Source: Acidobacteriota bacterium (lineage in GTDB: Bacteria; Acidobacteriota; Terriglobia; Versatilivoradales; Versatilivoraceae). Taken from it: a stretch of 64,000 nt of DNA. The stretch is from assembly GCA_028875575.1 (NCBI GenBank), contig JAPPDF010000084.1, forward strand, positions 12,666 through 76,665. Reading direction: 5' to 3'. The position numbers and the translations under genes were made by a program. The notes under the pieces were generated by a model. It had not been told where the DNA came from. It searched no databases and saw only the letters and a list, made by a program, of their open reading frames with translations. Positions 5,992 to 45,900 of this stretch are shown here, piece by piece (position 1 is the first letter of the stretch; every line of letters starts with the position of its first letter).

Positions 5992-6097
5992 TCTTTTGCA
6001 AGCGCCGAATCGTTTATTCCTTCCGCATTGAGCCTGAATCCAACCCCTGATCGTTTGGGCATCCTCGGATGCTGTCCCTGTTTCCCGGAGGTCCGGC

Positions 6098-9154: not shown

Positions 9155-9199
9155 TCAGGGATGATTGGTGAAGGTGAAAGGGAAATGGAGGCGGTCATG

Positions 9200-11812
9200 A
9201 CGAAGGGGAAGGTAGAGGGTCGACGCAGCCACTGGCGGCTGCCGATCCCGGGAGTCGTCCTGCTGGCGGGATCGGTGCTGGCGGCCATGGCGCTGCCCGG
9301 CGTGGCCATCGCCGAAGAAGCTGGGGCGGTGACGCCGCCCGAGGCATCGCAGCCTGTGGTGTCGCTGCGCCTGCTTCCCGACGATCCCCAGATCTGGGGG
9401 GCTGAGGCGTCCCAGCAGTTCCTGCTGCTGGCCCGGTTCGCCGATGGCCTGGAGCGGGATGTCACCGACCAGGGTCGCTACAACCTCTCCGACCCGCAGG
9501 TGGCCGAGGTGGATGGGGACGGCAAGGTGGTGGCCCGTTCCAACGGAAGGGTCGTGCTGACGGCCGCCTTTCAGGACCGGACCGCCAGCACCGGGGTCGT
9601 GATCGATGGGATCTCCGAGGAGCGGCCCTTCAGCTTTGCCCGGGACATCGGTGCCATCTTCACCAAGACGGGATGCAACAACAGCGAGTGCCACGGGGGC
9701 GTCAAGGGACAGGGAGGCTTGAAGCTGTCGGTGAATGCGCTGTTTCCCAAGGAGGACTACCGCTGGATCACCGAAGGGGGGATCTACCAGGTGATGTCGG
9801 CGGAGGCAGCCGGGGAGAAGACTCCCCGGGTCAATCTGAAGGAGCCCGAACAGTCGCTGCTGCTGCTGAAGCCCACGCTGGCGGTGCCCCACGGAGGAGG
9901 CCAGCGGCTCAATCCGGAGTCCTCCAGTTATCGCACTCTGTTGCGCTGGATCCGGGATGGCGCGCCCTACGGCGAGGAAGGCAGCGAAGAGATCGCTCGC
10001 ATCGAGCGTTTGGAGGTCCTGCCCCGAGAGGTGGTCCTGGACCGCAAGGGGCGGCACCGTCTGCTGGTCACCGCCCATATGTCCAACGGACGCCGCGAAG
10101 ACGTTTCCGAGCAGGTGCTCTACGAGTCCAACGACCACGAGATCGTGGAGGTGGACGAGTCGGGAGTGGTGAGGGCCATGGGGGTCGGTGAGAGCGCCGT
10201 GATGATTCGAGCGGCCGGGCAGGCCACCAGCGCCCGGTTCGGCGTCATTGCCAAACCCCTGCCTCGCTATCCCGAGGTGGCGAAGAGGAACTACGTCGAC
10301 GAGCACGTATTCGGAAAGCTGGAGCGCTTCAACATCATTCCCTCCGAAACCTCCAGCGACAGCGAGTTCCTGCGGCGCGTCTGCCTGGACCTGACCGGAA
10401 CCCTGCCACCGCCCGAAAGGGTTCGCGAGTTTCTGTCGAGCCGGGATCCCGACAAGCGGGATGCCCTGATCGAGACGCTCCTGAACTCCCCCGAGTACGT
10501 CGACTACTGGACCTATTTCTTCAGCGAGGTGCTCAGAGTCTATTCCGGGGCGACGCTCAATGCGGAGCATGCGCTCATCTACGAGGATTGGGTTCGAAAG
10601 AACATTGCCGGCAACGCTCCCTACGACCGGATGGCGAGAGAGCGGCTGGCGGCCCAGGGCTTCAGCGGTCCGGCCTGGTCCTATTGGACCTTCCGCGACC
10701 TGACCCCGGTTCCCGAGATCGCCACCGAGCAGATCCGGGTGTTCCTGGGACGGAGGCTGGGGTGCGCCCAGTGCCACAACCACCCCTTCGAGAACTGGAG
10801 CCAGGACCAGTTCTGGGGGCTGGCGGCCTTCTTCGGCGACATGACCCAGATCATGGAGGTCGAGAAGATACGGGGTCCCTATTTCGTGATCGACGACATC
10901 GGGGGGCATGGCCGCCGCAAGGATCGAAGTCCGGCCAAGATCCTCCATCCCAGGACCAAGGAGCAGGTCCGGCCCAGCTTCCCCGACGGCAGCGTTCTTC
11001 CCGACAGCGAACGGCGGGACCTGCGCATGAAATTGGCCGAATGGATGACCGCGCCGGAGAACCCCTACTTTGCCGAGGCCATCGTCAATCGCGTCTGGGG
11101 CCACTTTTTCGGAAGGGGCCTGGTGGAACCGGTGGATGACTTCCGCGCGACCAACCCGCCGACCCATCCCGAACTGCTGAAGGAGCTGTCCCGGAATTTC
11201 GTGGATCACGGCTACGATCTGAAGGATCTGTTGCGAACCCTCCTGCGCTCTCGAACCTATCAGTTGTCGGGGCGGGCCAACGAGACCAACCGGGACGACA
11301 AGGTCAACTATTCCCGGGCCTTGCCCCGCCTGCTGGAAGCGCCGGTGTTGCTGGATGCCATTTCTCGGGCCACGGGGGTGGATTCGGAGCTCATTGTCTC
11401 CGACGAACCCGATGCCTCCAGCGGTGCTCCTCCGGGTACGCGGGCCATCAGCCTGATTCCGGGAATGGTTCCTTCGCCCTTCTTCGAGGTCTACAACCGC
11501 AACGATCGCCGGGGCGTGCCGGAGAACAAGCCCCAGCTCACCCTGCTGCAGAGCCTGCACCGGCTGTCGGGACCGACCTTCACCACTCGGCTGACCCAGG
11601 AAGGCAGCCGGGTGGACCGTCTGTTGAAGCAGGGGGCCGGCGACCGACAGATTATCGAGGAACTCTACCTCTCGGCCTTGACCCGCTTCCCCTCCGACCG
11701 GGAGCTTTCCGGGATCGAGGCCAAGCTGGGCGAGCAGCCGTCGCGCCGGGAAGGGTTGCAGTCTCTGGCCTGGGCGCTTGTCAGTTCGCGGGAATTTGTC
11801 CATAATCATTGA
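9200..11812 (+). CDS. PSCyt1 / Big-2 / DUF1549 / DUF1553 (PSD1) domain protein
   Basis: Planctomycete cytochrome-c motif TGCNNSECHGG and DUF1553 motif CAQCHNHPFENWSQDQFWGLAAFF. Signal peptide starts at the ATG at 9200 (GGAGG RBS). The ORF is open from 9161. Confidence 0.85.
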   Translation, partial: TKGKVEGRRSHWRLPIPGVVLLAGSVLAAMALPGVAIAEEAGAVTPPEASQPVVSLRLLPDDPQIWGAEASQQFLLLARFADGLERDVTDQGRYNLSDPQVAEVDGDGKVVARSNGRVVLTAAFQDRTASTGVVIDGISEERPFSFARDIGAIFTKTGCNNSECHGGVKGQGGLKLSVNALFPKEDYRWITEGGIYQVMSAEAAGEKTPRVNLKEPEQSLLLLKPTLAVPHGGGQRLNPESSSYRTLLRWIRDGAPYGEEGSEEIARIERLEVLPREVVLDRKGRHRLLVTAHMSNGRREDVSEQVLYESNDHEIVEVDESGVVRAMGVGESAVMIRAAGQATSARFGVIAKPLPRYPEVAKRNYVDEHVFGKLERFNIIPSETSSDSEFLRRVCLDLTGTLPPPERVREFLSSRDPDKRDALIETLLNSPEYVDYWTYFFSEVLRVYSGATLNAEHALIYEDWVRKNIAGNAPYDRMARERLAAQGFSGPAWSYWTFRDLTPVPEIATEQIRVFLGRRLGCAQCHNHPFENWSQDQFWGLAAFFGDMTQIMEVEKIRGPYFVIDDIGGHGRRKDRSPAKILHPRTKEQVRPSFPDGSVLPDSERRDLRMKLAEWMTAPENPYFAEAIVNRVWGHFFGRGLVEPVDDFRATNPPTHPELLKELSRNFVDHGYDLKDLLRTLLRSRTYQLSGRANETNRDDKVNYSRALPRLLEAPVLLDAISRATGVDSELIVSDEPDASSGAPPGTRAISLIPGMVPSPFFEVYNRNDRRGVPENKPQLTLLQSLHRLSGPTFTTRLTQEGSRVDRLLKQGAGDRQIIEELYLSALTRFPSDRELSGIEAKLGEQPSRREGLQSLAWALVSSREFVHNH

Positions 11813-11854
11813 GGCTTGCGTGCCGGCTTGGCCGGACAAAAACAGGAGAATCCG

Positions 11855-13186
11855 ATGAAAAGGCAAGGAAGGCTCCAAGAACCCTGGCCGCATCCTTTGG
11901 GACGGCGGGAATTCCTGAGGGTGGGCGCCTTGAGCTATCTGGGCCTCAGCCTGAGCGAGTATTTCCAGTTGTCCAGCCTTATGGCCGCCCCCACCGCCAA
12001 ACAGGCCAAGGCGCAGTCCTGCATTCTCATCTGGATGCACGGCGGGCAGAGCCACCTGGATACCTGGGACGTGAAGGGAAACAGCGGCTTCAAGCCCATC
12101 TCCACCAACGTGCCCGGAATCCAGATCTCGGAGCTGCTGCCCCGGGTGTCCCGGCACATGGACAAGCTGTCGATCATCCGCTCGATGAAGAACGAGTCCA
12201 ACGCCCATTCCGAAGGTACCTACTACGCCATGACGGGGCATATGCCGACCACCACCACCCGCTTTCCCAGCGTGGGCACCGTGGTTGCCAAGGAACTGGG
12301 CACGCGCACCAGCGTTCCGGCCTACGTGACCACCGGACGGGGACGTCTGAACTGCCGCAGCGCCGGGTTCGTGGAGCCCCACTACGAACCGTTCATCATC
12401 CCGGAGCCGGGGTCCAAGGATTTCAAGGTCACCGACCTTGTCTTGCCCGATGAGGTCTCGGTGGACGCCCTCCATGCCCGGCACGCCTTCTTGAAGCTGG
12501 TGGACGAACGCTACCGGCGGATGGAGAACCACGCCAACTTCGCCAAGGTCGACTCCTTTAACGAGAGGGCGCTCAACCTCATTACCTCACCGGCGGTCCG
12601 CAACGCCTTCGATCTCTCCCAGGAATCGGAAAAGATCAAGGAGGCCTACGGCCCTGGACGGTTTGGACAGGGAACACTGCTGGCCCGCCGGCTGGTGGAA
12701 GCGGGATGTCGATTTGTGACCATCGACGGCTGGAACAAGGAAGCCAAGCACGATTGGGACACCCATTACAGGAACGACTACTACGTGAAGGAAGAACTCG
12801 TTCCGCCTTTGGATCGCGCCCTCTCCACTCTGCTGGTTGACCTCAAGGAACGAGGCCTGTTCGAGTCCACCATCGTCCTGGTAATGGGTGAGTTCGGCCG
12901 CACCCCCAACATCAATCCGGGTCGGGGGCGAGACCATTGGGGTCACTGCTGGTCCCTGGTGCTGGGAGGCGGCGGCATCAAGGGAGGCCAGGTGGTGGGA
13001 GCCAGCGATGAGCGGGGGGCCTACGTGGCGGAACGTCTGGTCACCATCGGGGACCTCTTCGCCACCGTCTACAAGGCCCTGGGCATCGATTGGACCAAGA
13101 CCTACCTGGGTCCCGGACGCCGGCCCATCTACATCGCCAACTCCATCGGCGACAAGCAGGGAGAGCCCGTCCACGAGCTGGTTTGA
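11855..13186 (+). CDS. DUF1501 domain protein (sulfatase-like, Tat-exported); partner of the DUF1549/DUF1553 protein
   Basis: Tat motif RREFLRVG. DUF1501 signature HWGHCWSLVLGGGGIKGG. AGGAG RBS. Conserved pairing with the upstream gene. Confidence 0.85.
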   Translation: MKRQGRLQEPWPHPLGRREFLRVGALSYLGLSLSEYFQLSSLMAAPTAKQAKAQSCILIWMHGGQSHLDTWDVKGNSGFKPISTNVPGIQISELLPRVSRHMDKLSIIRSMKNESNAHSEGTYYAMTGHMPTTTTRFPSVGTVVAKELGTRTSVPAYVTTGRGRLNCRSAGFVEPHYEPFIIPEPGSKDFKVTDLVLPDEVSVDALHARHAFLKLVDERYRRMENHANFAKVDSFNERALNLITSPAVRNAFDLSQESEKIKEAYGPGRFGQGTLLARRLVEAGCRFVTIDGWNKEAKHDWDTHYRNDYYVKEELVPPLDRALSTLLVDLKERGLFESTIVLVMGEFGRTPNINPGRGRDHWGHCWSLVLGGGGIKGGQVVGASDERGAYVAERLVTIGDLFATVYKALGIDWTKTYLGPGRRPIYIANSIGDKQGEPVHELV

Positions 13187-13233
13187 GGAGTTGACCGGCG
13201 CCGACCGCGGAATCCGGAAGGACGCCAGGGAGA

Positions 13234-13276
13234 AAAAGGGTCATCCACGAAATCCGTGGTTGACCCTTTTTTCTGT
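13234..13276. terminator. Bidirectional rho-independent terminator hairpin between convergent genes
   Basis: aaaagggtca-tccacg-aaat-ccgtgg-t-tgaccctttt forms a perfect 10-bp outer stem plus an inner stem, followed by a T-run. It sits between the DUF1501 (+) and enolase-superfamily (-) genes. Confidence 0.55.
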
Positions 13277-13386
13277 TTCACCCACCCATGATCCGCCCGG
13301 CGGGGTGGCAGGTCTCGCCCGCATGTCCCGGCGGGTCGCCAGGAGCCGCGGAGCTCCATCCTCGAGCCCGGCGCATTTCTTCCCGA

Positions 13387-14646
13387 CTACGTCCCGAAGT
13401 AAGTTTCCCCTTCCATCAGGTACTTCCGGGTCTCCTCTTCGTCCAGTTCCACCCCCAGCCCCGGACCCTCGGGGATATCGATAAAGCCGTTGCTGATCTT
13501 GGGCCTGTATCCCTTGAGGATGCGGTCCCAACCGGGCATGGCGTGGAACTCCAGCGCCAGCAGGTTGGGCATGGCGGCGCAGGAGTGAACCGCGGCGGCA
13601 ATGCCTATGGGGCTGGAGGCGTTGTGAGGACAGGTCTGCAGGTGGTGGATGTCGGCCAGGTCCGCAATCTTCTTGGATTCGGCAATGCCGCCGCTGACCT
13701 GGATGTCGGGGGCCACCATGCGGGTGGCCGACCGCCGGAAGAATTCCAGGAACTCGTGGCGCAGGTGGAGTCCCTCCCCAACCAGGGTCGGCGTGTGCGA
13801 GGATGCCGTCAGGGTCGCCCAGGCCTCGACGTCGGTAGCCGGGATGGGATCCTCGACCCAGGTGAGGTCGAAGGGCTCCACGGCCTTGAGGTAGCGCATG
13901 GCATTGGACAGGGTTCCGCAGCGGGCCTCGACCGAGATTTCCACCTCCTCGCCGACTTCCCGCCGGATGTCCTCGATCTGACGAACCAGCGTGCTCAAGC
14001 CCTTGCGCGTCAGGTGACGGTCCATGACGCCGCCCGGGACCCCAAGCACCTTGGGGGGCGTGGCATCGAATTTCAGGCAGGTGATGCCCAACTCCCGATA
14101 GACGTCGGCCATGCCCAGATAATCCTGCAGGTCTCCCACGCAGCAATAGAGACGCACCCGGTCCCAATGCCTTCCGCCCAGCAGCTTGTATACCGGGGCG
14201 CCCAAGGCTTTCCCGGCAATGTCCCAAAGGGCGGTTTCCACGCCGCTGGCGGCATGGGCGGCCACGCCGCTGTCGAAATGGGCGGCGCCGAAAGTGCCGT
14301 AGGCCCGCCCCATCATCCGTCGAAACAGCCTCTCGACGTCGGTGGGATCCTCGCCCAAAAGCAACGGGCGGTAACCCAGCACATGGGCTCGGGCGGCATC
14401 GTTGGCCCAGGTGTCGCCGTAGCCGCTGATTCCCTGGTCGGTATCGACGCGGATCAACATCCAGCGCCGCCGCCAGCCCCAGTCCACCTCCAGCATGGTG
14501 GTCTTCACGTCGGTGATGCGGATCTCGGGCTTGGGTTTGGTTCCGGCGGCATGAATGGAATTCCGATCATGACCGGAGCCCACCAGCAGGGCGCCGGTCG
14601 CACCGGTCAGCGATGACAGAAAGTGGCGGCGATCGAAGGCCAACAT
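13387..14646 (-). CDS. Mandelate racemase/muconate lactonizing enzyme family (enolase superfamily) protein with Tat signal
   Basis: N-terminal RRHFLSSLTGATGALLV Tat signal. The MR_MLE pattern is present (KFDATPP..., catalytic Asp/Glu region EDPIP). Confidence 0.8.
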   Translation of the reverse strand: MLAFDRRHFLSSLTGATGALLVGSGHDRNSIHAAGTKPKPEIRITDVKTTMLEVDWGWRRRWMLIRVDTDQGISGYGDTWANDAARAHVLGYRPLLLGEDPTDVERLFRRMMGRAYGTFGAAHFDSGVAAHAASGVETALWDIAGKALGAPVYKLLGGRHWDRVRLYCCVGDLQDYLGMADVYRELGITCLKFDATPPKVLGVPGGVMDRHLTRKGLSTLVRQIEDIRREVGEEVEISVEARCGTLSNAMRYLKAVEPFDLTWVEDPIPATDVEAWATLTASSHTPTLVGEGLHLRHEFLEFFRRSATRMVAPDIQVSGGIAESKKIADLADIHHLQTCPHNASSPIGIAAAVHSCAAMPNLLALEFHAMPGWDRILKGYRPKISNGFIDIPEGPGLGVELDEEETRKYLMEGETYFGT

Positions 14647-14832
14647 GACAGTCCTCCTATGTTTGGATTAAAGACGACCGGTCTTCTCCGGGGTTTCCCG
14701 TCCGGGTTGGCTTCCCGCCGAGGATGCGGCATAATTCGGCGGTCCAGCTTCCAGCATGCGCGGGTGCGTTCCACACCGGGGGTCTCTCTCGGGTAACCAG
14801 GTACCTGCAAGAATCGATCATCAGGAGGAATC

Positions 14833-26724: not shown

Positions 26725-27072
26725 ATGAGCAGATCGAATCAGTTGCGGTGGAGCCCGAATTCCAAAATGGCTGGAAGGACTTCCCCGATGTCCGAAAGAG
26801 ATGCTGCCAACGCGTTTGACCCACGCAATCCAAGGCGGTCACCCTCGAGACCGCGTCCGGCTTGGTGGGTGCTCCTGACCCTCTATTGGCTTCTGTTCCC
26901 GCCGCCGACCTACGCCTACATCGATCCAGGGACAGGCAGCTACATTCTTCAGGTCGTGATCGCGGGCCTGTTGGGAGCCCTGGTTTCCCTCAGGATTTAT
27001 TGGGCAAGGATCAAGGCCTTCTTAAAGGGAAACCCGCCATTGGGCGGAAACGATCCGGACAAGCATGAATGA
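26725..27072 (+). CDS. Small two-TM membrane protein (hypothetical)
   Basis: Arg/Pro-rich N-terminus, then WWVLLTLYWLLFPPPTYAYIDPGTGSYILQVVIAGLLGALVSL. Its stop overlaps the start of the downstream methyltransferase. Confidence 0.4.
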   Translation: MSRSNQLRWSPNSKMAGRTSPMSERDAANAFDPRNPRRSPSRPRPAWWVLLTLYWLLFPPPTYAYIDPGTGSYILQVVIAGLLGALVSLRIYWARIKAFLKGNPPLGGNDPDKHE

Positions 27073-28456
27073 TTCGATCGAGGGTCTGCCGTCCTCCTTT
27101 CGCGACCCCAGTGGATTTCTGTTTCTCGATAGGGGTGTGCTCTACCGCCAGGTCAATCGCAGTTATCGGGAACATTTCGAGCACTTCGTGGACTCGGGGC
27201 TCTGTTCGAGACTGGTCGATGCAGGGCTCCTGGTGGCTCATGAGGAGGTGGACTTGCCACCAGCGGAGTCGCCGGAAGGTTTCAAGATTCTCAGGCCGGA
27301 TCCGTTACCCTTCATCTCCTATCCCTTCGAGTGGAGCTTCAGCCAGCTCCAGGATGCTGCCCTGGCCACACTGGCGATCCAAAAGCAAAGCCTGGACCAT
27401 GGCATGTCCCTCAAGGACGGCACCGCCTACAATATCCAGTTCCGCAATGGGAAACCCCTGTTTATCGACACCTTGTCCTTTGAAAGGTACTCGGAAGGCC
27501 GGCCCTGGACAGCCTATCGCCAATTCTGCCAGCATTTCCTGGCGCCCTTGGCCCTGGCGAGCTACTCCGATATTCGACTCAGCCAGTTGCTCCGGATTCA
27601 CCTGGACGGTGTTCCCTTGGACCTGGCCAGTCGACTGTTGCCCGTTCGCACCCGATTCCGGTTTTCCCTGCTGACCCACCTCCATCTTCATGCCAAGGCC
27701 CAGACGCACTTTGCCGACAAGCCGGAACGCCCAGTCCGCCGGTCCGTCAGCCGCAGGGCGCTGCAGGGCTTGATCGAGAACCTGGAATCCTGCGTGGCGG
27801 CGCTCAATTGGAAGCCGCCCCAACAGGAATGGGCCTCCTACTATGAAGACACCAATTACACCAGTGAGGCCTTTCGCCACAAGGAGCAACTGGTGGGCGA
27901 GTATCTGGACCGAATCACCCCCAAACCCGACATGGTTTGGGACCTGGGCGCCAACACGGGACTGTTCAGTCGTCTGGCCGCAAGCCGCGGGATGACCACT
28001 ATCGCCTTCGATCAGGATCCCGCCTGCGTTGAGCGAAATTACCGGGTCTGCCGGCAGGAAGGGGATACCAACATCCTGCCTCTTTGGGTCGACTTGACCA
28101 ATCCCAGTCCCAACCTGGGTTGGCACGGCCGTGAACGAATGTCCCTGTTGGAACGAGGCTCCCCGGACGCCGTCCTGGCCCTGGCTCTGATCCACCACCT
28201 GGCCATTGCCAACAACCTGCCTCTGTCCCGTCTGGCCGGCTTTTTCGGTGAACTGTGCCGCTCGCTGATCATTGAGTTCGTCCCCAAGACCGACTCGCAG
28301 GTGCAACGGCTGCTGGCTTCGAGGGAGGACATCTTTCCAAGCTACACCCGGGAGGCCTTCGAGCAGGCCTTCAGACGCTATTTCGAAATCAGAGAGGTCA
28401 GCAAGATCCGACAAACCGAGAGGACGCTGTATCGCATGGAGAGAAAACCACTGTGA
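27065..28456 (+). CDS. Class I SAM-dependent methyltransferase with large N-terminal domain
   Basis: 463 aa. Motif I is VWDLGANTGLFSRLAA. Translationally coupled to the upstream small ORF. Converges on the sulfatase-like operon. Confidence 0.7.
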   Translation: MNDSIEGLPSSFRDPSGFLFLDRGVLYRQVNRSYREHFEHFVDSGLCSRLVDAGLLVAHEEVDLPPAESPEGFKILRPDPLPFISYPFEWSFSQLQDAALATLAIQKQSLDHGMSLKDGTAYNIQFRNGKPLFIDTLSFERYSEGRPWTAYRQFCQHFLAPLALASYSDIRLSQLLRIHLDGVPLDLASRLLPVRTRFRFSLLTHLHLHAKAQTHFADKPERPVRRSVSRRALQGLIENLESCVAALNWKPPQQEWASYYEDTNYTSEAFRHKEQLVGEYLDRITPKPDMVWDLGANTGLFSRLAASRGMTTIAFDQDPACVERNYRVCRQEGDTNILPLWVDLTNPSPNLGWHGRERMSLLERGSPDAVLALALIHHLAIANNLPLSRLAGFFGELCRSLIIEFVPKTDSQVQRLLASREDIFPSYTREAFEQAFRRYFEIREVSKIRQTERTLYRMERKPL

Positions 28457-28520
28457 AAGAGCTGATGGTCCGGGGTGTGGACGAGCAAACCATGCACGTC
28501 CACGAGGCGATTCGGACTCG

Positions 28521-31055
28521 TTACCTGTCCTTCACATTCAGGCTGACTCTCACCATGGCCGCGGCCAATTTTCTGACATCCCTTCCACCGTCGATGGATT
28601 TGGGGGAGATGGCGTCGGGCAAGTCGAATTCGATCGTGACTCCCCTGGAGTCGACCAGTTCCTTTGGGATGGTCGCCTGCAACGTGTGAGTCTTTCTCTC
28701 AGTGGCTGTCCATTCACCGACCTTGTTTCTGTTGGCCAAAACACGGATGGTCTGCTTGGGCACCCGTTCTTCTCGCAGGAAGGGTCGAAGCACTGCCTGC
28801 AGGGTGAGATCCTTTTGAGGAACGGGCACTGGAATATGGAGGCTGGCGAGGTGTCCGCTGGTCCAGCGGAAGTTGTCCTCGGCCGATTTGCTCCACCCCC
28901 TGCCCATAAAGGCTTCAGCGTTGCCATTCCTTCCGAATCGGATCTCCGTCCCGTACCGATAGTCCGGCCAAGGATGCAGGCTGAGGGAACGCATCAATAT
29001 GGCCAATTGTCTCCTGTCTCCTCCGGCGCCAATCGACCTGGGCGAAACCGCATTGGGGAGATGGAATGCGATTTCTACGTCTGGAGAATGAATCAGTGCC
29101 TTTGGAATTACGGCTCGAAACTGGTGCACCTGCTGTTTACCGGCAGACCAGAGATCGATCTCTGTGCCATTGGCAAGGACGTGAATTTGTTGTTCCGGGA
29201 CCTCCGGTTTGATGTAGGGTCTGAGAGTGGCCTTCAAGAGAAGATCGTTTTCAGGTACAGCCAGCTTGATCTTCAAGCTCGAGTTGTGGCCATTGTTCCA
29301 GCAGCCGTTACTCATCGGCGAGCTCCACCCGAAGCCCAGAAAATCGTCCGCATTTCCCAACAGACCGAAGGTGATGTCGGTACCGAATTCGTACTGGGGT
29401 CTCGTTCTCAATACGGCAACAGGCTCGCCACCGTGGCATGCCGCCGGATCGAAAACGCTGCCTGTAATCAGGTACTTGGTGAGTTCCGGCTCTCCAGTGG
29501 ACGTGCGGTAGGTTACGAACGGACGACTTCGTGCCTCCCTGGGGGAGATTTCAAAAATGGGTCGTCCGGGAAACCCTCCATCGACTCCACTCGCTTTCAT
29601 GATGGTTGCCGCGATGTCCAGGAGAGAGGTTTGAGCCCTCGAAACCGTCAGGGCCCCCGAGCTTCCCGGGAGCTTCATCGTTAGCAGGGCGGCAAGCCGG
29701 GGGACACAGGTTTCGATCGTTTCCCCATCGATAACCGGAGGAATCTGGCTGCCGTGATCGCCCTGCAGAACAATGAGGGATGAATCGTAAAGATTCAATT
29801 CCTTGAGTCGATTCAACAACTTCAGAAAGAGTTTCAGGATTGCGCGCGCTTCGTTCCGATAATTTTCCCTGGTGTTGGGAAGGACCCGGCCGGCATAACT
29901 TCCGTCATCCCGCGTGACATAAGGAGGATGGGGCGGAATCAGGTGGAGGAAGTGATAGGCCGGTTGGGAATCGCCAACAAAAACATTTCCCGCATAATCG
30001 TTGAAGAACGCCTTTTTCTGGAAAGAAGAGACACTCCTGTGTCCGGCCACCAGCGGTGTGATCAACCAATTGTTGTCGTTGTAGACTCCATAGCGAGCCC
30101 AATGGGGAAGTTGCCGAAACAGCGCCACATCCATGAGGTGGGCGGCGCTGAGTTGAACCACATCCTCCGGCGAACCCATGTAAACGCGTGGAATGCGGTA
30201 GTAATTCGTGTACTTGCCATCCCGCATGGACTCCAAGGGAACCAGGTTCACTTTATATCCGTCATCGTGTAGACGGTTCTGAAAACCTTTGCGCACCGAT
30301 TCCCGGTAGTAGCTTCCCGGGAGTTGTTTCCCGTCAAAAATCTGACCGGAGAAGATGGCCGGTATCGAAAACGAAGTGTAGGGAGCAACCCCCATGTTGT
30401 CTTCGAACAGAACAAAGCCCTCCAGGTCGTCTTCCAGTTGTTGCTCGACCACCAGTTCCCGGAAAATGTCGGTTTGAAAGCTGTCCAGAATAATGTGAAC
30501 GATATTCCTTGAAGAGGAATAGTCCAGCAACTCGGCTGGAACCCGGTGCCGGGGAGTGTGCTCCTTCCACCACATTCCTCCTTCGGAAGTGAGGCTTAGG
30601 GCCAACATCAGAACCGATTGCAGACCAATCAGCGTCCAGCTGGCCTGTGAGGTGATCCTGATCAGGTGGTGTGAAAAACGCAGGCCGGCTGCCAGGACCA
30701 GGACCCATAGCGATGCATCCATCCAACCGCGCAAGCCAAACTGCGACCAATCGATTCCTCTCCCATCGAAGACTCCGTAGGTTCCCATCAGAAAACTTCC
30801 TTGAACCCAGAGTAGTAGGCCGAGGCAAAAGATTGTGCACGCGAGTCCCTTTAGGGCTCGGCTCGGTATCAGGAAGCCGATCAGAAGGAATGCGGTCGTA
30901 AGCAGAAGGCCGAATAGACCGTAAATGGGGAGAAGGCTCCCAAAGCCTACTTCAAACTCGTCGAGATTTCCCCGGTAGACGGAAAAAGTCCCGAAAACAA
31001 GTAGATTGGCGGAAACCAATAGAGAGGGTGGCAATACTTGTTTCAGCCTGTACAT
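28521..31055 (-). CDS. Membrane-anchored sulfatase / LTA-synthase-family protein with two C-terminal ~95-aa repeat domains
   Basis: N-terminal multi-TM, then sulfatase-fold motifs (NIVHIILDSFQTD, LQGDHGS). Tandem C-terminal repeats LKATLRPYIKPEVPEQQIHVLANG... and LQAVLRPFLREERVPKQTIRVLANRN... Confidence 0.75.
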   Translation of the reverse strand: MYRLKQVLPPSLLVSANLLVFGTFSVYRGNLDEFEVGFGSLLPIYGLFGLLLTTAFLLIGFLIPSRALKGLACTIFCLGLLLWVQGSFLMGTYGVFDGRGIDWSQFGLRGWMDASLWVLVLAAGLRFSHHLIRITSQASWTLIGLQSVLMLALSLTSEGGMWWKEHTPRHRVPAELLDYSSSRNIVHIILDSFQTDIFRELVVEQQLEDDLEGFVLFEDNMGVAPYTSFSIPAIFSGQIFDGKQLPGSYYRESVRKGFQNRLHDDGYKVNLVPLESMRDGKYTNYYRIPRVYMGSPEDVVQLSAAHLMDVALFRQLPHWARYGVYNDNNWLITPLVAGHRSVSSFQKKAFFNDYAGNVFVGDSQPAYHFLHLIPPHPPYVTRDDGSYAGRVLPNTRENYRNEARAILKLFLKLLNRLKELNLYDSSLIVLQGDHGSQIPPVIDGETIETCVPRLAALLTMKLPGSSGALTVSRAQTSLLDIAATIMKASGVDGGFPGRPIFEISPREARSRPFVTYRTSTGEPELTKYLITGSVFDPAACHGGEPVAVLRTRPQYEFGTDITFGLLGNADDFLGFGWSSPMSNGCWNNGHNSSLKIKLAVPENDLLLKATLRPYIKPEVPEQQIHVLANGTEIDLWSAGKQQVHQFRAVIPKALIHSPDVEIAFHLPNAVSPRSIGAGGDRRQLAILMRSLSLHPWPDYRYGTEIRFGRNGNAEAFMGRGWSKSAEDNFRWTSGHLASLHIPVPVPQKDLTLQAVLRPFLREERVPKQTIRVLANRNKVGEWTATERKTHTLQATIPKELVDSRGVTIEFDLPDAISPKSIDGGRDVRKLAAAMVRVSLNVKDR

Positions 31056-31342
31056 TGGTCAGTAGGATTGCGCCCCTTACCGGACTTGACTCCCACTTGC
31101 CGGGAGAAGGCTCTGAGAGACAGGTACAGAGCAGACGCAAATACAATGTCGAGAGGGCGGGACTTCAATCGGATCTTCCATCCTGGGTCGGGTCTTCTCC
31201 ACCAAGTCAATGACTCTCCAATCACAGAAAGCCCTCGCGGGTCGAGGCGATCATTGACTCCCTCACTTTCCTGGAAGAGGGGAATTTCCGAGGCCGGCCA
31301 AGACAGAGGGATACCGGTGCTTGAGGGGCCGCACCAGTCAGT

Positions 31343-33547
31343 TCAGGGTTCATGGCCGTCGTGCAACGTGATATCCCGAAAGCGGCCACCCAGCGTGCGG
31401 ACATCACGATTCATTCCTATTTCCTTGGGGGAGGTCGCATACGGAAACTTGAATTCGATCACGATTTCCTCGTCCTGGAAATGAGTTGCGGGAACAGCGA
31501 GGGAATGGGTGCGCAACCGTTTCTCGGTCAGCGTCCATTCACCCACGGGATTGTCATTGATTTGGATCAGCACGCGCTGGCGTGGGACCTTGTCCGGCAC
31601 AACGAAGGGGCGCAGTGTCGCGCTCAGGAGTACAGTGTCGCTGTTGGGAGGATCCACCTCCAACCCCAGTCTTGCGGCCTTGGCTCCTGTCCAGGTTCCG
31701 CCTTTATTGGGTCTGCTCCATCCATCCAGCAGAAATCGAAAAACGTTGCCCGTTCTCCCAAACCTGAGCACAGTACCCCAATGGTACTCTCGGCTAGAGT
31801 ACGCGGTCGGCTTGGGGTAGAGCCTTCCTTTTCGCCAGGAGGATTCCTGAAAAACGCTGCCCGAAATGACGTATTCCTGCAAGTATTCGAAAAATCCGGT
31901 CTTTGCAGCGCGATTCCGCTTAGACCCCGGGAGGTAGAATCTTCGCTGCCTCTCCTCTCCAGTATTTACTGCAAAAACGCTCTTGCCGCCAAAGTGCTCG
32001 GGCAAACCCAGCAGCGCAGCGACCGTTGCGGAGAAGTCATTGAGCTCAACCTGCGCCTCGGACACTTTTAACGGCTCCCGACTTTGCGCAGGCTTTGCCA
32101 GAAACAACGGCAAAAGGCTTCCCCATACCTGAAGATCGGATTTCATACTGTCAATCCACCGACCCGAATCGGCTGCTTGCATCTTAAACGAAAGTCCACC
32201 TCCATGGTCCGACTGAATGATGATCGTGGAGTCATCGTAGATTGCTAGGGCCCGAAGTTTGTCAAGGAAGGTGACGATCCTGTCGAGAGTATAGGCGGAC
32301 TGCCGTTTGTAGTTCTCCCGGGTTTTTTTCAAGGGAATCCTGCTTGGCAGGTTTCCATCGGCAACCACCAGCGGAGGATGGGGTGTAATGAGGTGAATAT
32401 ACTTGTAGACAGGTCCGTCTCTCCCCAGCGATGACTCTTCGGTGAAATGTCGGAGAAACTCATTCGAGGAAAAGTGTTTAAACTCCAGGCCCGACAGTTC
32501 CAGCATCATCGATGATATCGACCAGGCCTGTTGGTTATAAATCACTCTCTTGATGAAATGGGGGGCGGCTCGAAACAGAGACAAGTCCAACATAAAAGCG
32601 GCTTGCCATCTTTCCGTTTCCTCCTTTCCCCGGAAGGGTCGGCGGATATGAAAATAGGTCCCTTTTGGATAAAAGTTCAGCGAAAAATCCGTAGCCGAAG
32701 CGATATCGACCTGATAGCCGGCATCTGCCAGAACCTTGACTACATTTTTACCATCCAGTGCCTCTTGCTTGAATTTCCACACGGGAATGTGATTTCGGTA
32801 TGTCGCCCCGGTCATGAATGAAGGAACGCTCAAGTAGGTTACCGTCGACGAGGTGGTGGCTTCCTTGAAAAAGGTGAATCCCTGCAGGGCATCCCGATAA
32901 CGTTTGGAGTCCCTGACCATCTCTTCGAAGATGTCCGACTGAAACCCGTCCAAGACGATATGAATCAAATTCTTGGTGACTGAGAACCGGAAGAGCTTTT
33001 CGGGCGGATCCAAGTGGGTAATCGAGCGCCCGAGCTTTTCACCCGATTCGGCTCGTGGATCGGATTCCATTAACCACAGCGATCCCAACTGGACCGCGAA
33101 CAGAAACAGGCAGAGTAGCTGAACCACCGGAAAGAGCCGCCGCCGCCAGTAGACGGCAGCCACAAGGACCGCCACCCATATTGGGGTGTCCACATAGCCC
33201 TTCCACGCTTCCCGCGGCCAGTCTATGAATGTTCCATCCAGCGGGCCGTAACCCCATAGAAGGACATCGCTTTGCAACCACAAAAGAGCGCCAATCGCAG
33301 CGAGAACCGCGATGTAGCATTGGCCTGGCCCTCGTGGCAGAGCCAGGCCAAGACCAACGAGGATGGCCATGGACGCCAGGAACGGCATGAAATAAAGCGC
33401 GATGAGAGTGACAAACGCCACTCTCATCTCTGCTGCATTGGTGATGTAGATCGTGAGAGGACAGAAGAGGAATATCTTGAAGTTGATCCAGCCAACGACG
33501 AGTATCAAGGGAATTGCTGCGTGTCCTCGATCAGAAATCATGAGCAC
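31343..33547 (-). CDS. Membrane-anchored sulfatase / LTA-synthase-family protein (paralog) with one C-terminal repeat domain
   Basis: Multi-TM N-terminus. NLIHIVLDGFQSDIF and IIQSDHGG motifs. C-terminal LSATLRPFVVPDKVPRQRVLIQINDN... is homologous to the repeats in the neighbouring paralog. Confidence 0.75.
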   Translation of the reverse strand: MLMISDRGHAAIPLILVVGWINFKIFLFCPLTIYITNAAEMRVAFVTLIALYFMPFLASMAILVGLGLALPRGPGQCYIAVLAAIGALLWLQSDVLLWGYGPLDGTFIDWPREAWKGYVDTPIWVAVLVAAVYWRRRLFPVVQLLCLFLFAVQLGSLWLMESDPRAESGEKLGRSITHLDPPEKLFRFSVTKNLIHIVLDGFQSDIFEEMVRDSKRYRDALQGFTFFKEATTSSTVTYLSVPSFMTGATYRNHIPVWKFKQEALDGKNVVKVLADAGYQVDIASATDFSLNFYPKGTYFHIRRPFRGKEETERWQAAFMLDLSLFRAAPHFIKRVIYNQQAWSISSMMLELSGLEFKHFSSNEFLRHFTEESSLGRDGPVYKYIHLITPHPPLVVADGNLPSRIPLKKTRENYKRQSAYTLDRIVTFLDKLRALAIYDDSTIIIQSDHGGGLSFKMQAADSGRWIDSMKSDLQVWGSLLPLFLAKPAQSREPLKVSEAQVELNDFSATVAALLGLPEHFGGKSVFAVNTGEERQRRFYLPGSKRNRAAKTGFFEYLQEYVISGSVFQESSWRKGRLYPKPTAYSSREYHWGTVLRFGRTGNVFRFLLDGWSRPNKGGTWTGAKAARLGLEVDPPNSDTVLLSATLRPFVVPDKVPRQRVLIQINDNPVGEWTLTEKRLRTHSLAVPATHFQDEEIVIEFKFPYATSPKEIGMNRDVRTLGGRFRDITLHDGHEP

Positions 33548-33645
33548 GTTCCTGGGACGGGCGAAAGTCCTACGGATAATCTATTGTCGAAGGGTTTTCA
33601 ATCAGTGGGTGGCTCCGGAACACAACTTGAAAAGACTGACTGAAG

Positions 33646-35643
33646 TTACTCCTTGCGGAAGAATACTCTCACCCGAGAGAGGTCCAACAAAGAAGTATCG
33701 TAGTCGTAGCGGTCCAGGTGACCGACAATCTGCTGCATGGCCTCTGCCGGTGACGGACCATCCGCACATGGTCTTGTGTGACCCTTGACCTTCCACACGT
33801 TTAACACGTTCCTGCGCAACCGGAACTCGAAAGCCGTGTCACATTGAACCAGCGACACACTGCCGAGCGAAAAGAATGGAGGAACAATGTGGGAAGGGGT
33901 TATCTGCCTGCGGGCTATCACCCCGGTGCCATGTATCCGGTCTGCTGCGAAATTGGTGCGCTCGTGATTCGGGTCCTTCCCGATCAAGGATTGCCCCGTC
34001 ATCCATCCGGGACGATCCATCCCCAGGTAGTCGAGCAGGGTAGGAGCAATATCGAGGTTTTGAGAATTGGAAGACACTCGACGTCTTCGGTCATCGGTTG
34101 GAAACAGAAACATCAAGGGAATCCGTTTCCTGTTCGCATGCTTGATGCCGTGATCTGACGTGATCACCACGATGGTGTCCTGTAACAGGTTCCGGTCAGC
34201 CAAGCCGTCGAGAATTTTCTTCACGTGGGTATCAAACTGCAAAATGGCATCGTCATAGAAATCCGTCATCCAAGGTTCATCCTGTGTCTTGCCCTCGGAG
34301 TAAACGCGCCGGACAGGTCTGAATTTCGGCCCATGGGTTCCCAGCATGTGGAGGTAGACGAAGAAGGGCCCCTCTCCCTCGGCCAACCACCGCCAGAGTT
34401 GGACGATTCGCTCCGTATCGCCTCGTGACTGGTAGGGGACGTGAACAAGCTGATCGAACGCGTCACTCATCCGCTCAACATCGAAGACGTGCAGGAGCCG
34501 GCTCTCGATCCGGTCACGAATCTGGGTCAGGAAATAGGCGGCCCCCTGTCCAATGGCATCAGTGAACCACTCCGGCAGCAGGAATCCCTTCAGTTCTCGA
34601 TCATTGGCCCAGTCGAAGGAATGACGCATGTTGAGATCATAGGCATCGGCATAGTAGCGAAGGCCGATGTTTGCGCTGCGGTATCCAAGGGTTTTCAGGA
34701 TTGCCGGCAGGTGCTGGTAGGCGTCCTTTCCCCTCAGGATATCGGGTGGATAAATGAGGCGCGTCTCGGTGGGGAGCTTCCCCGTCAAAATGGAAGCTAC
34801 GGAAGCGGCCGAGGGTCCCGCATTGGGGAAGTTGTTCTCGCAAAGCAGCGATCTGTCGGCCAGTTGCCTGAGGTAAGGGGTCGTGTCCCTGTCGTAACCA
34901 TACAGCGACATATGCTCGGCCTCAACACCGTCTCCGACGATCAGGAGTATGTTGGGCAGCACTCCGTTCTTCACGTGTGGGCCGACCGGCGTGGACGCTG
35001 ATACTTTGTGAGTCCCCAGGTAGAGGGTCCCAACCAGCGTGATCGAAGCCATTGCGGCGCATGCGACGCCGAGCGAGCGACCGAGCCCGTGACGTGAAAT
35101 GGTCCGTATTGCCTGCCAAGTCAGGGTGTAGACCGCCACTGCAATCAACACGAGCAGAGCCTGATACCCGAGCAACCCCTTGGCCTCGACATGCCTGATA
35201 CCCCAGCCCAGCACCGTCAAGGTGAAGTTGTCGACCATCAGAAAGGCAGCCAGAGCCAGCACCCAGCACGGAAGCAGGAGGCTCACGGGGACCCATAGAG
35301 CGCGGACGGGGCCGGGAACCTGGAAGCCGGCCAACGCGGAGCCGTATCCAAGCAAGGCCCCGACCATCCAGTACAACACCAGGGGTGCGACCGTCGCCAC
35401 CAGCACTGGGCCGGAAGAAACCGCGAGAATGAGCAGGGACTCGGACAAGGGCAGCGAAGACATGAAAGAAGGCTTGGTGACAAAGAATAGCCATTCCATG
35501 AAAACGTAGAAATACACGGCCAGGAATGTGAGTCCGAAGACTCGTCCCAAAGATGCGGGCCCCAGGACTTCCGTCCATGAGTCCCGGAAGGGCTTTGAAG
35601 CAACCACGACCTGTTTACGCCATTCCCCACGAATCATTGACAA
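33646..35643 (-). CDS. Membrane-anchored sulfatase-family protein (alkaline phosphatase superfamily)
   Basis: Multi-TM N-terminus. NILLIVGDGVEAEHMSLYGY, TGKLPTE and VITSDHG motifs. It is the first gene of a three-gene minus-strand operon. Confidence 0.75.
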   Translation of the reverse strand: MSMIRGEWRKQVVVASKPFRDSWTEVLGPASLGRVFGLTFLAVYFYVFMEWLFFVTKPSFMSSLPLSESLLILAVSSGPVLVATVAPLVLYWMVGALLGYGSALAGFQVPGPVRALWVPVSLLLPCWVLALAAFLMVDNFTLTVLGWGIRHVEAKGLLGYQALLVLIAVAVYTLTWQAIRTISRHGLGRSLGVACAAMASITLVGTLYLGTHKVSASTPVGPHVKNGVLPNILLIVGDGVEAEHMSLYGYDRDTTPYLRQLADRSLLCENNFPNAGPSAASVASILTGKLPTETRLIYPPDILRGKDAYQHLPAILKTLGYRSANIGLRYYADAYDLNMRHSFDWANDRELKGFLLPEWFTDAIGQGAAYFLTQIRDRIESRLLHVFDVERMSDAFDQLVHVPYQSRGDTERIVQLWRWLAEGEGPFFVYLHMLGTHGPKFRPVRRVYSEGKTQDEPWMTDFYDDAILQFDTHVKKILDGLADRNLLQDTIVVITSDHGIKHANRKRIPLMFLFPTDDRRRRVSSNSQNLDIAPTLLDYLGMDRPGWMTGQSLIGKDPNHERTNFAADRIHGTGVIARRQITPSHIVPPFFSLGSVSLVQCDTAFEFRLRRNVLNVWKVKGHTRPCADGPSPAEAMQQIVGHLDRYDYDTSLLDLSRVRVFFRKE

Positions 35644-44440: not shown

Positions 44441-44684
44441 CCCGCATTTCTCACCAGGCCGCTGGAGGCATTACAAGAAGTAGATTATCTTCAGCACCTT
44501 GATTGGCTCAATGTCAAGGGCTTGCGCATCACAGACGGCGCTGGGCATGCCCTGGCTTGTCCTTTTCCCTTCAGCGCGCACAGGCTCCCTCGACCGTAGA
44601 AACCGCTACGCTCTTCGGTCGCGAGCACGCGCTGAAGGGGAAATTCCTGCGCCATGATCATGCCCCCTGGTGAGAAATGCGGGC
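44440..44684 (-). mobile_element. MITE copy 3 (245 bp, inverted relative to copies 1 and 2) between ruvA and ruvB
   Basis: Same TIRs and TA flanks, inserted in CTAG exactly at the ruvA stop. About 90% identical to copies 1 and 2. Confidence 0.85.
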
Positions 44685-44790
44685 TAGGCGGACTATCCAC
44701 TCGCCACGCCGCCGGCCCCGGTTGAATCGCTTCCGATCTTTGTGCTACCGTTGCGGCGAGTCTTCCGTTCTCATCCTCCCCAATTTCTCT

Positions 44791-45810
44791 ATGGACCAGG
44801 ATCGAATTATTTCCGGGGCTCCCTTCGAGGAGGAGCAGAGCTTCGAGCTCAGCTTGCGCCCCAGGGTTCTGCAGGAGTATATCGGCCAGAACCAAGTGAA
44901 GCAGAACCTGGAGATCTCGGTAGCGGCCGCCCGTTCCCGGGGCGAAGCCCTGGACCACGTGCTGCTCTACGGTCCGCCCGGCCTGGGGAAGACCACCCTG
45001 GCCGGCGTCATCGCCAACGAGCTGGGGGTGAGTCTGAAGACCACCACCGGTCCCATCATTCAGATCAAGGGAGATCTGACGGCCATTCTCACCAACCTGC
45101 AGCCCAACGACGTGCTGTTCATCGACGAGATTCACCGCCTCTTGCCTCACATCGAGGAGATTCTCTATCCGGCCCTGGAGGACTTCAAGCTGGACCTGAT
45201 CATCGGCCAGGGGCCCAGCGCCAGAAGCGTGGCGCTCAATCTGCCCCCGTTTACCCTGGTGGGCGCCACCACCCGAGCGGGGTTGATCTCCTCTCCGCTG
45301 AGGTCCCGCTTCGGCATCGTGCACCGGCTGGACTACTACACCGAGGAAGAGCTGGGGGTGATCGTGAGACGCTCGGCCGAAATCCTGGGCATCCGGATCG
45401 ACGCGGCGGGAACCAAGGAGATCGCCGCCCGCTCGCGCGGCACGCCGCGCGTGGCCAACCGCCTGCTGCGAAGGGTTCGCGACTACGCCCAGGTGAAGGC
45501 CGACGGGGTCATTAACCGGGAAGTGGCCCGCCAAAGCCTGGCCCTGCTGGCCATCGACGACACCGGCTTTGACGAGAACGACAAGAAACTGATCAAGACC
45601 ATCATCGAGAAATTCTCCGGCGGACCCGTGGGGGTGGCCACCCTGGCGGCTGCCATCAGCGAGGAAGTGGACGCCATCGAGGACATTTACGAACCCTATC
45701 TGATTCAGAGAGGCCTGCTGCAACGCACTCCCCGAGGCCGGATGGCCACCAAGCTGGCCTACGAACACTTCGGTCTGACTCCCGCCCCCGGCCAGCTCAG
45801 CCTGCTGTGA
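44791..45810 (+). CDS. ruvB: Holliday junction branch migration DNA helicase RuvB
   Basis: Walker [12 protein letters not shown] and the RuvB-specific sensor pattern. Start [15 protein letters not shown] at 44791. Confidence 0.95.
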
Positions 45811-45840
45811 GGGAAGCGAGTGATTTGCCGGAAGCATAAT

Positions 45841-45900
45841 AGGCAAAGAGAGTTATCCACGAAGGGGCACGAAGGACGACGAAGGGCCAGCAAGGGGTTG
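45841..45900 (+). repeat. CACGAAGG-unit short interspersed repeat, copy E
   Basis: aaagagagttatccacgaaggggcacgaaggacgacgaagggccagcaagggg. Confidence 0.7.

Follow-up and report, generated by a model that had tools for sequence, protein, structure and literature searches.

A 64,000-nucleotide stretch of the genome of an Acidobacteriota bacterium (contig JAPPDF010000084.1, positions 12,666 to 76,665; hereafter the window) carries a five-gene locus whose invariant core is a mini membrane protein translationally coupled to a two-domain methyltransferase protein (MT). Most lineages add to this pair an adjoining polytopic enzyme of the alkaline phosphatase (AP) superfamily. In the Acidobacteria lineage of the window the addition is a cassette of three such enzymes, designated S1, S2 and S3, which is evolving fast and in which all three active sites are complete. 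We tentatively propose, with somewhat less than even confidence, that these genes form a widespread envelope module for the two-compartment phospho-modification of a glycan.

The coupled pair and its membrane partner across genomes

All five genes of a first-pass annotation, made from the letters of the window alone, were confirmed from the table of open reading frames (ORFs) and their translations, with the following boundaries:

26788..27072, plus strand: mini membrane protein of 94 aa, in an ORF open from 26719, with YIDPGTGS encoded at 26917-26940
27065..28456, plus strand: MT, soluble two-domain enzyme, 463 aa
28521..31055, minus strand: S3, 844 aa, polytopic membrane AP-superfamily enzyme, LtaS-like, convergent on MT
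31343..33547, minus strand: S2, 734 aa, paralogue of S3; likely ATG at 33541
33646..35643, minus strand: S1, 665 aa, polytopic membrane AP-superfamily enzyme; likely ATG at 35637

The stop of the mini-protein gene at 27072 overlaps the MT ATG at 27065 by 8 nt. S1, S2 and S3 lie on the minus strand and converge on MT, which lies on the plus strand, with 64 bp between the convergent stops of MT and S3.

Relatives of MT were collected by a pattern scan of one genome per species, which placed the protein in at least 595 genomes, and the best 80 relatives were surveyed. The family comprises at least 8000 clusters at 90% identity, and outside the close relatives of the window MT identity was 52-64%. 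Among these best 80, the bacterial members came from the Acidobacteriota, Chloroflexota, Clostridia, Zixibacteria, Omnitrophota, Planctomycetota, Thermodesulfobacteriota and the Candidate Phyla Radiation (CPR; Parcubacteria and Woykebacteria), and the archaeal members from the Methanomicrobia, the Methanoregulaceae and a complete Nitrosopumilaceae chromosome (Thaumarchaeota). A mini-protein homologue was encoded directly upstream of MT on the same strand at every locus with upstream sequence (79/79), usually overlapping the MT start.

AP partners were counted by searching every ORF of the loci with an iterated hidden Markov model (HMM) of the AP enzymes, a locus being informative if at least 1.5 kb of sequence was present downstream of MT (n=77). 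The loci were distributed as follows:

42 loci: AP enzyme immediately downstream of MT and on its strand (490-540 aa as a rule, the gene often overlapping the MT stop by 4 bp)
5 loci: AP enzyme adjacent and convergent to MT, as in the window
7 loci: AP enzyme elsewhere within 10 kb
23 loci: no AP enzyme within 10 kb
6 loci: no usable downstream sequence

An AP enzyme adjoined the pair in 47 of the 77 informative loci and lay within 10 kb in 54 of them. This count is conservative, as L007, where the gene runs off the contig, and L083, where it is reduced to frameshifted fragments, were scored as having none. Since 23 of the 77 loci have the pair with no AP enzyme within 10 kb, the enzyme is not obligatory. 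Chance adjacency of AP enzymes and MT was considered and rejected, because the arrangement recurs across phyla. A search in the opposite direction, from five distant S3 relatives, found the pair adjacent or nearby in L085 (Wenzhouxiangella), L086 and L089. The first-pass annotation had called for a check of whether the five genes co-occur as a set; what is conserved is the mini-protein, MT and usually one AP enzyme, whereas the cassette of three is local and rapidly changing. No match to a three-part module with an obligatory mini-protein was found in the databases or the literature searched.

After the module genes themselves, the commonest neighbours were nucleoside diphosphate (NDP)-sugar epimerases/dehydratases (18 loci) and glycosyltransferases of families GT4 (12) and GT2 (11); single loci also had STT3/AglB, or Wzm/Wzt-like transporter genes together with an adenosine 5'-phosphosulfate (APS) kinase. 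Several individual loci differ in their composition. In L001, a 5.2-Mb Acidobacteria genome whose MT is 75% identical to that of the window, there is no AP enzyme nearby and the pair is flanked (L001:8973-9587 and 12427-14768) by an APS-kinase-family gene, GT2, GT4, DegT and Wzm/Wzt-like ABC transporter genes. In nine loci of the Anaerolineae type (L024, L028, L032, L036, L038, L044, L058, L065 and L068) the AP enzyme is replaced directly downstream of MT by a protein of ~330 aa with two transmembrane (TM) segments and a well-conserved C-terminal domain that has no Pfam assignment. In an Acidobacteriota chromosome (L088:3995-8139) an S1-like gene (39% identical) and an S3-like gene (44%) are divergently paired with no MT within 6 kb, and enzymes of the S1 and S3 types may cooperate without need of the pair.

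The membrane enzymes and their C-terminal domains

S1, S2 and S3 all matched the Pfam Sulfatase family (PF00884) above its gathering cut-off of 25 bits (118.3, 63.6 and 36.9 bits, respectively), and each has several hydrophobic N-terminal segments before the catalytic domain. These results bear out the earlier description of three minus-strand genes that encode a multi-TM N-terminus followed by an AP-superfamily domain. The catalytic domains, and the C-terminal domains of S2 and S3 that resemble carbohydrate-binding modules (CBMs), were placed as follows:

~34018-34956, minus strand: S1 catalytic domain, with a serine nucleophile in S-A-A-S-V
~32006-32974, minus strand: S2 catalytic domain
~29586-30509, minus strand: S3 catalytic domain, with active site D191, T227, H371, H376, D433 and H434
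31346-31786, minus strand: S2 CBM-like domain, residues ~588-734, single copy
28962..29393, minus strand: S3 CBM-like copy 1, residues 555-698, from alignment of the internal repeat and HMM domain mapping; 47% identical to copy 2
28524..28961, minus strand: S3 CBM-like copy 2, residues 699-844, with the fold from AlphaFold2 and Foldseek

Both the catalytic and the CBM-like domains are predicted to face outwards, on the extracytoplasmic side.

The active sites were examined in an alignment of S1-S3 with 63 homologues that adjoin MT genes in other genomes (66 proteins). The columns D191, T227 (Ser in S1), H371, H376, D433 and H434 (S3 numbering) are all present in S1-S3 and are kept in 83-100% of the aligned proteins, with H376 and D433 at 100% and T227 invariant across the S3 family. 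The nucleophile is threonine in S2 and S3 and serine in S1. The first-pass annotation had named loss of the nucleophile and metal ligands as evidence that would count against its assignment, and these residues are intact in all three proteins. Its view of the three as paralogues holds for S2 and S3, which at ~28% identity clearly are, but S1 is only a distant superfamily relative, nearer to true sulfatases, with a tail of ~110 aa unrelated to the C-terminal domains of S2 and S3.

The best solved relatives of S1 are carbohydrate sulfatases (E 7e-13). Together with the Pfam Sulfatase matches and the APS-kinase gene that adjoins the pair in L001, this would fit S1-S3 being true sulfatases that scavenge sulfated glycans and lie beside MT by coincidence. 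We rejected this as a very remote prospect, because the formylglycine motif C/S-x-P-x-R is absent from all three: S-A-A-S-V of S1 aligns to S-G-P-S-R of the solved sulfatases, and S2 and S3 have threonine. Moreover, all three have polytopic N-terminal membrane domains, which are typical of the transferase branch, and the adjacency to the pair recurs across phyla.

When a profile of the S2/S3 family was compared with the PDB, the best match was S. aureus eLtaS (2w5q, E 1e-12), which at the level of sequence shows relatedness, not orthology. The NCBIfam LtaS model NF053595 gave 22.5, 16.1 and 19.7 bits for S1, S2 and S3 against a cut-off of 970; the EptA/MCR/CptA models reached 31 bits at best, for S1 only, against cut-offs of 400-1250; and the curated OpgB model also scored far under its cut-off for all three. 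Judged by these comparisons, S1-S3 are new members of the transferase-like AP branch and not orthologues of any named enzyme.

In architecture S1-S3 are like LtaS, GacH and OpgB, with an N-terminal multi-TM domain followed by an extracytoplasmic AP domain, a threonine nucleophile (in S2 and S3) and Asp/Glu and Asp-His metal ligands. GacH decorates a cell-wall polysaccharide (bioRxiv 10.1101/337519), the role proposed here for the AP enzymes of the window. Unlike LtaS, S2 and S3 have CBM-like domains that lie beyond the solved eLtaS catalytic domain, the alignments ending near S3 residue 500, and, unlike the LtaS and GacH systems in the literature searched, the enzymes are linked to a putative kinase-methyltransferase and its mini-protein. 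EptA/MCR, CptA, EptC and PptA share the superfamily and the membrane architecture with S1-S3, but the matches to them are short and weak and fall around the first metal-ligand motif in S1. That a periplasmic AP enzyme can follow a cytoplasmic kinase has a precedent in CptA, whose target is a heptose phosphate put in place by the kinase WaaP; PptA and EptC modify Ser/Thr of proteins.

The AP enzymes might instead be ordinary LtaS/OpgB/GacH-type transferases that move phosphoglycerol (or phosphoethanolamine) from bulk phospholipid, with the pair performing an unrelated step and the adjacency reflecting shared regulation or a shared target. LtaS is the nearest solved relative of S2 and S3, their threonine nucleophile and metal site are intact, the pair occurs without AP enzymes in ~30% of loci, and there are S3 relatives without the pair. 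However, 42 loci from distant phyla have the AP gene on the same strand directly after MT, often with the 4-bp overlap, and the NCBIfam LtaS, EptA and OpgB models score far under their cut-offs. Since the same arrangement is found in archaea and CPR bacteria, with differing membrane lipids, the distribution argues for a tight functional unit that can do without a host-specific lipid donor. We therefore consider ordinary transferases on bulk phospholipid an unlikely explanation.

The extra C-terminal domains that the first-pass annotation saw in two of the proteins, at ~95 aa each, are carried by S2 and S3, but the repeat unit is ~145 aa and S3 has two copies. The copies are 32-47% identical among themselves. 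An AlphaFold2 model of S3 copy 2, built from 33 homologous domains, is a beta-sandwich with a predicted local distance difference test (pLDDT) score of 97.2. Its Foldseek matches in the PDB were CBM35 (that of cycloisomaltooligosaccharide glucanotransferase), CBM36, CBM6, CBM4, CBM16 and the carbohydrate-binding domain of BcsB, with TM-scores mostly of ~0.4-0.6. Pfam, searched at E up to 10, gave no match for the three C-terminal domains of the window, DUF7024 (PF22895) included. Some of the relatives retrieved with a profile of the domain (A3) match DUF7024 weakly (E 6e-6 to 1e-8); the domains share the beta-sandwich fold with DUF7024 and with CBM35-CBM36-CBM6-type modules, and are probably distant relatives of DUF7024. 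Among 1.84 billion representatives the profile picked out 12,486 proteins (E up to 1e-3), many of them with 2-7 copies in tandem, and the architectures sampled included GT4 multi-domain glycosyltransferases, GT-C (PMT_2), FkbM methyltransferase and sulfatase-like enzymes. Both the CBM-like fold and the presence of the same domain on glycan enzymes argue that S2 and S3 act on a polysaccharide. One domain of the S2/S3 type (residues 52-184) also occurs in a 498-aa protein encoded ~6 kb upstream of MT in a gammaproteobacterial metagenome-assembled genome (MAG; L040:2159-3655).

The methyltransferase protein and the mini membrane protein

MT was divided into two domains:

27092..27814, plus strand: N-terminal domain, residues ~10-250, predicted protein-kinase-like fold
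27890..28453, plus strand: C-terminal class I S-adenosylmethionine (SAM)-dependent methyltransferase domain, with motif I D293-L-G-A-N-T-G299 and D316, D318 and D343

The first-pass annotation had described a 463-aa methyltransferase with an unassigned N-terminal domain. Class I methyltransferase motifs are indeed present (residues ~276-438) and the N-domain has no family match, but it can now be predicted to be kinase-like. MT has no hydrophobic segment. Methyltransf_23 matched 22 of 23 MT family members (best E 1e-5), the MT of the window scoring 20 bits against a gathering score of 27, and the best sequence match of MT in the PDB was the methyltransferase domain of WbdD. A defence-system reading of the locus was rejected, since PADLOC gave only mad2 (E 3e-5), on the methyltransferase domain of MT, which is a generic similarity.

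The N-domain (residues 1-270) is the most conserved part of the protein. In the family alignment (A1) its invariant residues are SFRDPxGF, R28, H59, SYPxEW, D118-x4-N123, D135 and YRQFCQHF, of which D118-x4-N123 resembles a catalytic loop and D135 the aspartate of a DFG motif. An AlphaFold2 model of MT, with pLDDT of ~70-93 over most of residues 20-160, has the order of elements of a kinase, namely a beta-rich small lobe followed by a helix, a hinge and then a lobe of helices, and places the Asp-x4-Asn and Asp motifs as the catalytic loop and DFG of a kinase. All of the top 50 Foldseek matches of the N-domain in the PDB were protein kinases (E 4e-4 to 3e-3), among them MSK1, VRK3, PknG, PAK, ROCK and RIO. 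An hhalign comparison of the MT family alignment with an approximate sequence of the aminoglycoside phosphotransferase NPTII was negative. Taken from fold prediction and motif spacing, the N-domain is probably kinase-like. By analogy with WbdD, this would shift the likely chemistry of the protein to phosphorylation plus methylation.

WbdD of E. coli O9a has both kinase and methyltransferase functions and acts on the O9a polymannan as an O-antigen chain terminator, and its parts run in the order methyltransferase, kinase, C-terminal coiled-coil (PMC3482155). Like WbdD, MT joins a class I SAM-methyltransferase and a predicted eukaryotic-type protein-kinase-like domain in one polypeptide, has ROCK-type kinases among the fold matches of its N-domain, as reported for WbdD, and would act on the cytoplasmic side of the membrane; in one related locus the neighbours include Wzm/Wzt-like and GT4 genes. 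Unlike WbdD, MT has the kinase-like domain first and stops at residue 463, with neither a coiled-coil nor a membrane-binding region at the C-terminus. It is also unlike WbdD in having an obligatory separate mini membrane protein, in lacking an ABC transporter at most of its loci and in a distribution that reaches archaea and CPR bacteria. The module thus appears to resemble WbdD in domain content and LtaS/GacH in its membrane enzymes, and to fit no named family fully.

For the mini-protein, the likely start at 26788 follows from an identical public protein of 94 aa, P0226, which is encoded together with a 100%-identical S3 fragment on one contig of an Acidobacteriota MAG. The protein consists of a signal-peptide-like N-region ending T-Y-A, the motif Y-I-D-P-G-T-G-S-x-x-x-Q, one TM helix and a basic cytoplasmic tail. 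The family consensus is Y-[IL]-D-P-G-[TS]-G-S-x-x-x-Q, after which come one TM helix and a basic stretch of the W-x-x-I-K type, and all homologues (79/79) have Gln at position +4 past the motif. The 20 residues past the TM helix, in the basic tail, have a net charge of +3.3, and the sequence of the cytoplasmic tail is variable. Position -1 before the motif is Ala in 53/79 homologues and position -3 is small or aliphatic in 60/79. Since a signal-peptidase-like site is present in most homologues, a signal peptide with a single-pass N-out/C-in peptide is more likely than a two-TM hairpin. The tiny two-TM protein of the first-pass annotation thus keeps its coupling to MT and its IDPGTGS motif, but the first of its segments looks like a cleavable signal peptide. 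The mini-proteins of Anaerolineae have no preceding hydrophobic segment.

Neither Pfam nor NCBIfam gave a match for the mini-protein, a homology search returned proteins of 63-115 aa only, with no fusions and no named homologues, and a literature search on the motif found no relevant paper. In a regular-expression scan of all ORFs in 84 loci and the window, the motif was found in mini-proteins only. In two gammaproteobacterial loci (L085:11625-13543 and L089:49-1930) the mini-protein gene adjoins a paralogue of the YidC/Oxa1-type (60KD_IMP) insertases and does not overlap MT; in L085 it is divergent from MT. In another protein (P0225, 972 aa) a YidC-like domain is naturally fused to an S3-like AP-superfamily enzyme. 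These YidC-type neighbours and the P0225 fusion suggest that the module has a link to a dedicated insertase.

The conservation of the exposed motif raises the question of whether the mini-protein is itself the substrate or a carrier, its N-terminal motif (Tyr, Asp, Thr/Ser, Ser) being modified by the kinase-methyltransferase before export and by the AP enzyme after it. This would yield a lipid-like anchored modified peptide or a polymer primer. There are precedents in PptA, which adds phospho-forms to a pilin Ser, and EptC, which does so to a flagellar-rod Thr. The mini-protein and MT are strictly coupled one to one, the most conserved residues are hydroxyl or acidic and follow directly after the signal-peptidase-like site, the cytoplasmic tail that a tether would need varies in sequence, and the YidC-like paralogues of L085 and L089 and the P0225 fusion also fit. 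However, once the mini-protein is inserted the membrane would separate its motif from the soluble enzyme, the mini-protein never occurs in multiple variable copies, unlike many precursors of ribosomally synthesized and post-translationally modified peptides (RiPPs), and the CBM-like domains and glycan-gene neighbours point to a carbohydrate target. We regard a substrate or carrier role as distinctly unlikely.

Turnover of the cassette, proposed chemistry and wider meaning

The closest genomes found were Terriglobia and other Acidobacteriota. Three close relatives (L005, L006 and L007) are syntenic with the window from the class III aminotransferase gene to Rex and differ from it between MT and the gene for electron transfer flavoprotein-ubiquinone oxidoreductase (ETF-QO):

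Window, MT to ETF-QO: S3, S2, S1
L006, the closest complete genome: S3 and S1 only, without S2
L007: the 3' end of S3 as a 40-codon remnant, followed by the S2 orthologue, inverted onto the strand of MT
L005: no AP gene; S2 persists as decayed fragments upstream of the mini-protein gene

An exact indel of 2.48 kb relative to L006, window 31061-33541, takes in S2 and the 287-bp spacer upstream of it. No repeats flank this indel that would explain insertion or inversion, the sole repeats being the paralogous similarity of S2 and S3. A further sign of rearrangement is a partial second copy of the class III aminotransferase (95 aa, 82% identical) beside the S2 remnants at L005:8655-8939. GC content is 0.53-0.58 across 28-36 kb compared with ~0.63 in the surroundings, a dip that coincides with the AP-enzyme cassette and is consistent with horizontal acquisition or with differing selective constraints. 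Because of this dip and the content that varies among relatives, the slot between MT and ETF-QO can be seen as a hot spot of gene turnover.

The operon drawn by the first-pass annotation is unproven: spacers of 98 and 287 bp separate the genes of the S1-S2-S3 run, and the closest genome differs from the window by the S2 indel. A promoter scan found 4 sites against 4.1 expected from shuffles, with no enrichment, and most of the 19 sites of a terminator scan (9.8 expected) lie inside genes. A 7-bp inverted repeat in the MT/S3 gap (window 28477-28503; GTGGACG, 13 nt, CGTCCAC) lacks a T-run and may act as a weak terminator in both directions. The flanks hold housekeeping genes (UvrA, a luciferase-like monooxygenase, the class III aminotransferase, ETF-QO, QueA, a BlaI-like repressor and Rex). 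Neither the Rfam nor the tRNA scan of the window gave a match. Elsewhere in the window there are large ORFs (442-1125 aa) with no Pfam match at E up to 1e-5, at 9155-12532 (minus strand), 7148-9154 (plus), 5005-6465 (minus), 13288-14616 (plus) and 44491-45846 (minus).

In the mechanism that we tentatively favor, the mini-protein would hold the kinase-methyltransferase at the inner face of the membrane, where the enzyme would phosphorylate a sugar of a lipid-linked or nascent glycan and methylate the sugar or its phosphate, like WbdD. After export, the LtaS-like enzymes, with their Thr/Ser nucleophile, would transfer or exchange phosphodiester-linked substituents on the same polymer, while the CBM-like domains hold the glycan, and turnover of AP paralogues would diversify the surface structure. 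A role on an envelope glycan is suggested by the CBM-like fold and by glycan-synthesis genes being the next most frequent neighbours elsewhere. The first-pass annotation had already proposed the transfer and methylation of phosphoglycerol- or phosphoethanolamine-type substituents on an envelope glycan, a glycolipid or a periplasmic glucan. Co-conservation across many phyla supports the functional link of MT, the mini-protein and an AP enzyme, but the predicted kinase-like N-domain would alter the chemistry that it proposed.

Several observations weigh against this mechanism. Twenty-three of the 77 informative loci, mostly from Anaerolineae, have the pair with no AP enzyme within 10 kb, the S3 relatives of L087 and L088 have no pair within 6-8 kb, and the window has no glycan-synthesis genes near the module. 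The WbdD link of MT is marginal (E 0.006) and was gone in a profile search. The kinase assignment comes from a mediocre model (mean pLDDT 64.5), with Foldseek E values of ~1e-3 and root-mean-square deviations mostly of 10-16 A, and the N-domain drew no sequence or profile support from Pfam (E up to 10, 23 members), NCBIfam or the PDB (single sequence and profile). Finally, the part of the mini-protein with the strongest conservation is predicted to lie outside, on the far side of the membrane from the cytoplasmic enzyme, which leaves the tether role weakly grounded.

A more speculative variant, which we consider a long shot, is that the module makes its own phosphodiester donor. A methyl-phosphate would be put on a sugar at the cytoplasmic face and exported; the Thr/Ser of the AP enzyme would then attack it, free methanol and re-ligate the glycan-phosphate to an acceptor hydroxyl, which could belong to a glycan, to a lipid or to Thr/Ser in the exposed mini-protein motif. 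If true, this would be a new solution to phosphodiester bond formation outside the cytoplasm, independent of ATP and of lipid donors, and would explain why the same three genes are found in bacteria, CPR and archaea despite their differing membrane lipids.

The finding concerns a large family, with at least 8000 clusters at 90% identity and at least 595 species-level genomes from bacteria to archaea, whose N-domain had no Pfam or NCBIfam model and no solved relative in our searches. The mini-protein and the frequent AP partner define a compact unit of envelope chemistry that may be common to both prokaryotic domains. In the lineage of the window, AP paralogues are rapidly gained, lost and inverted next to a core that stays fixed, a pattern that resembles a hot spot of surface diversification, which bears on phage and predator interactions in soil Acidobacteria.

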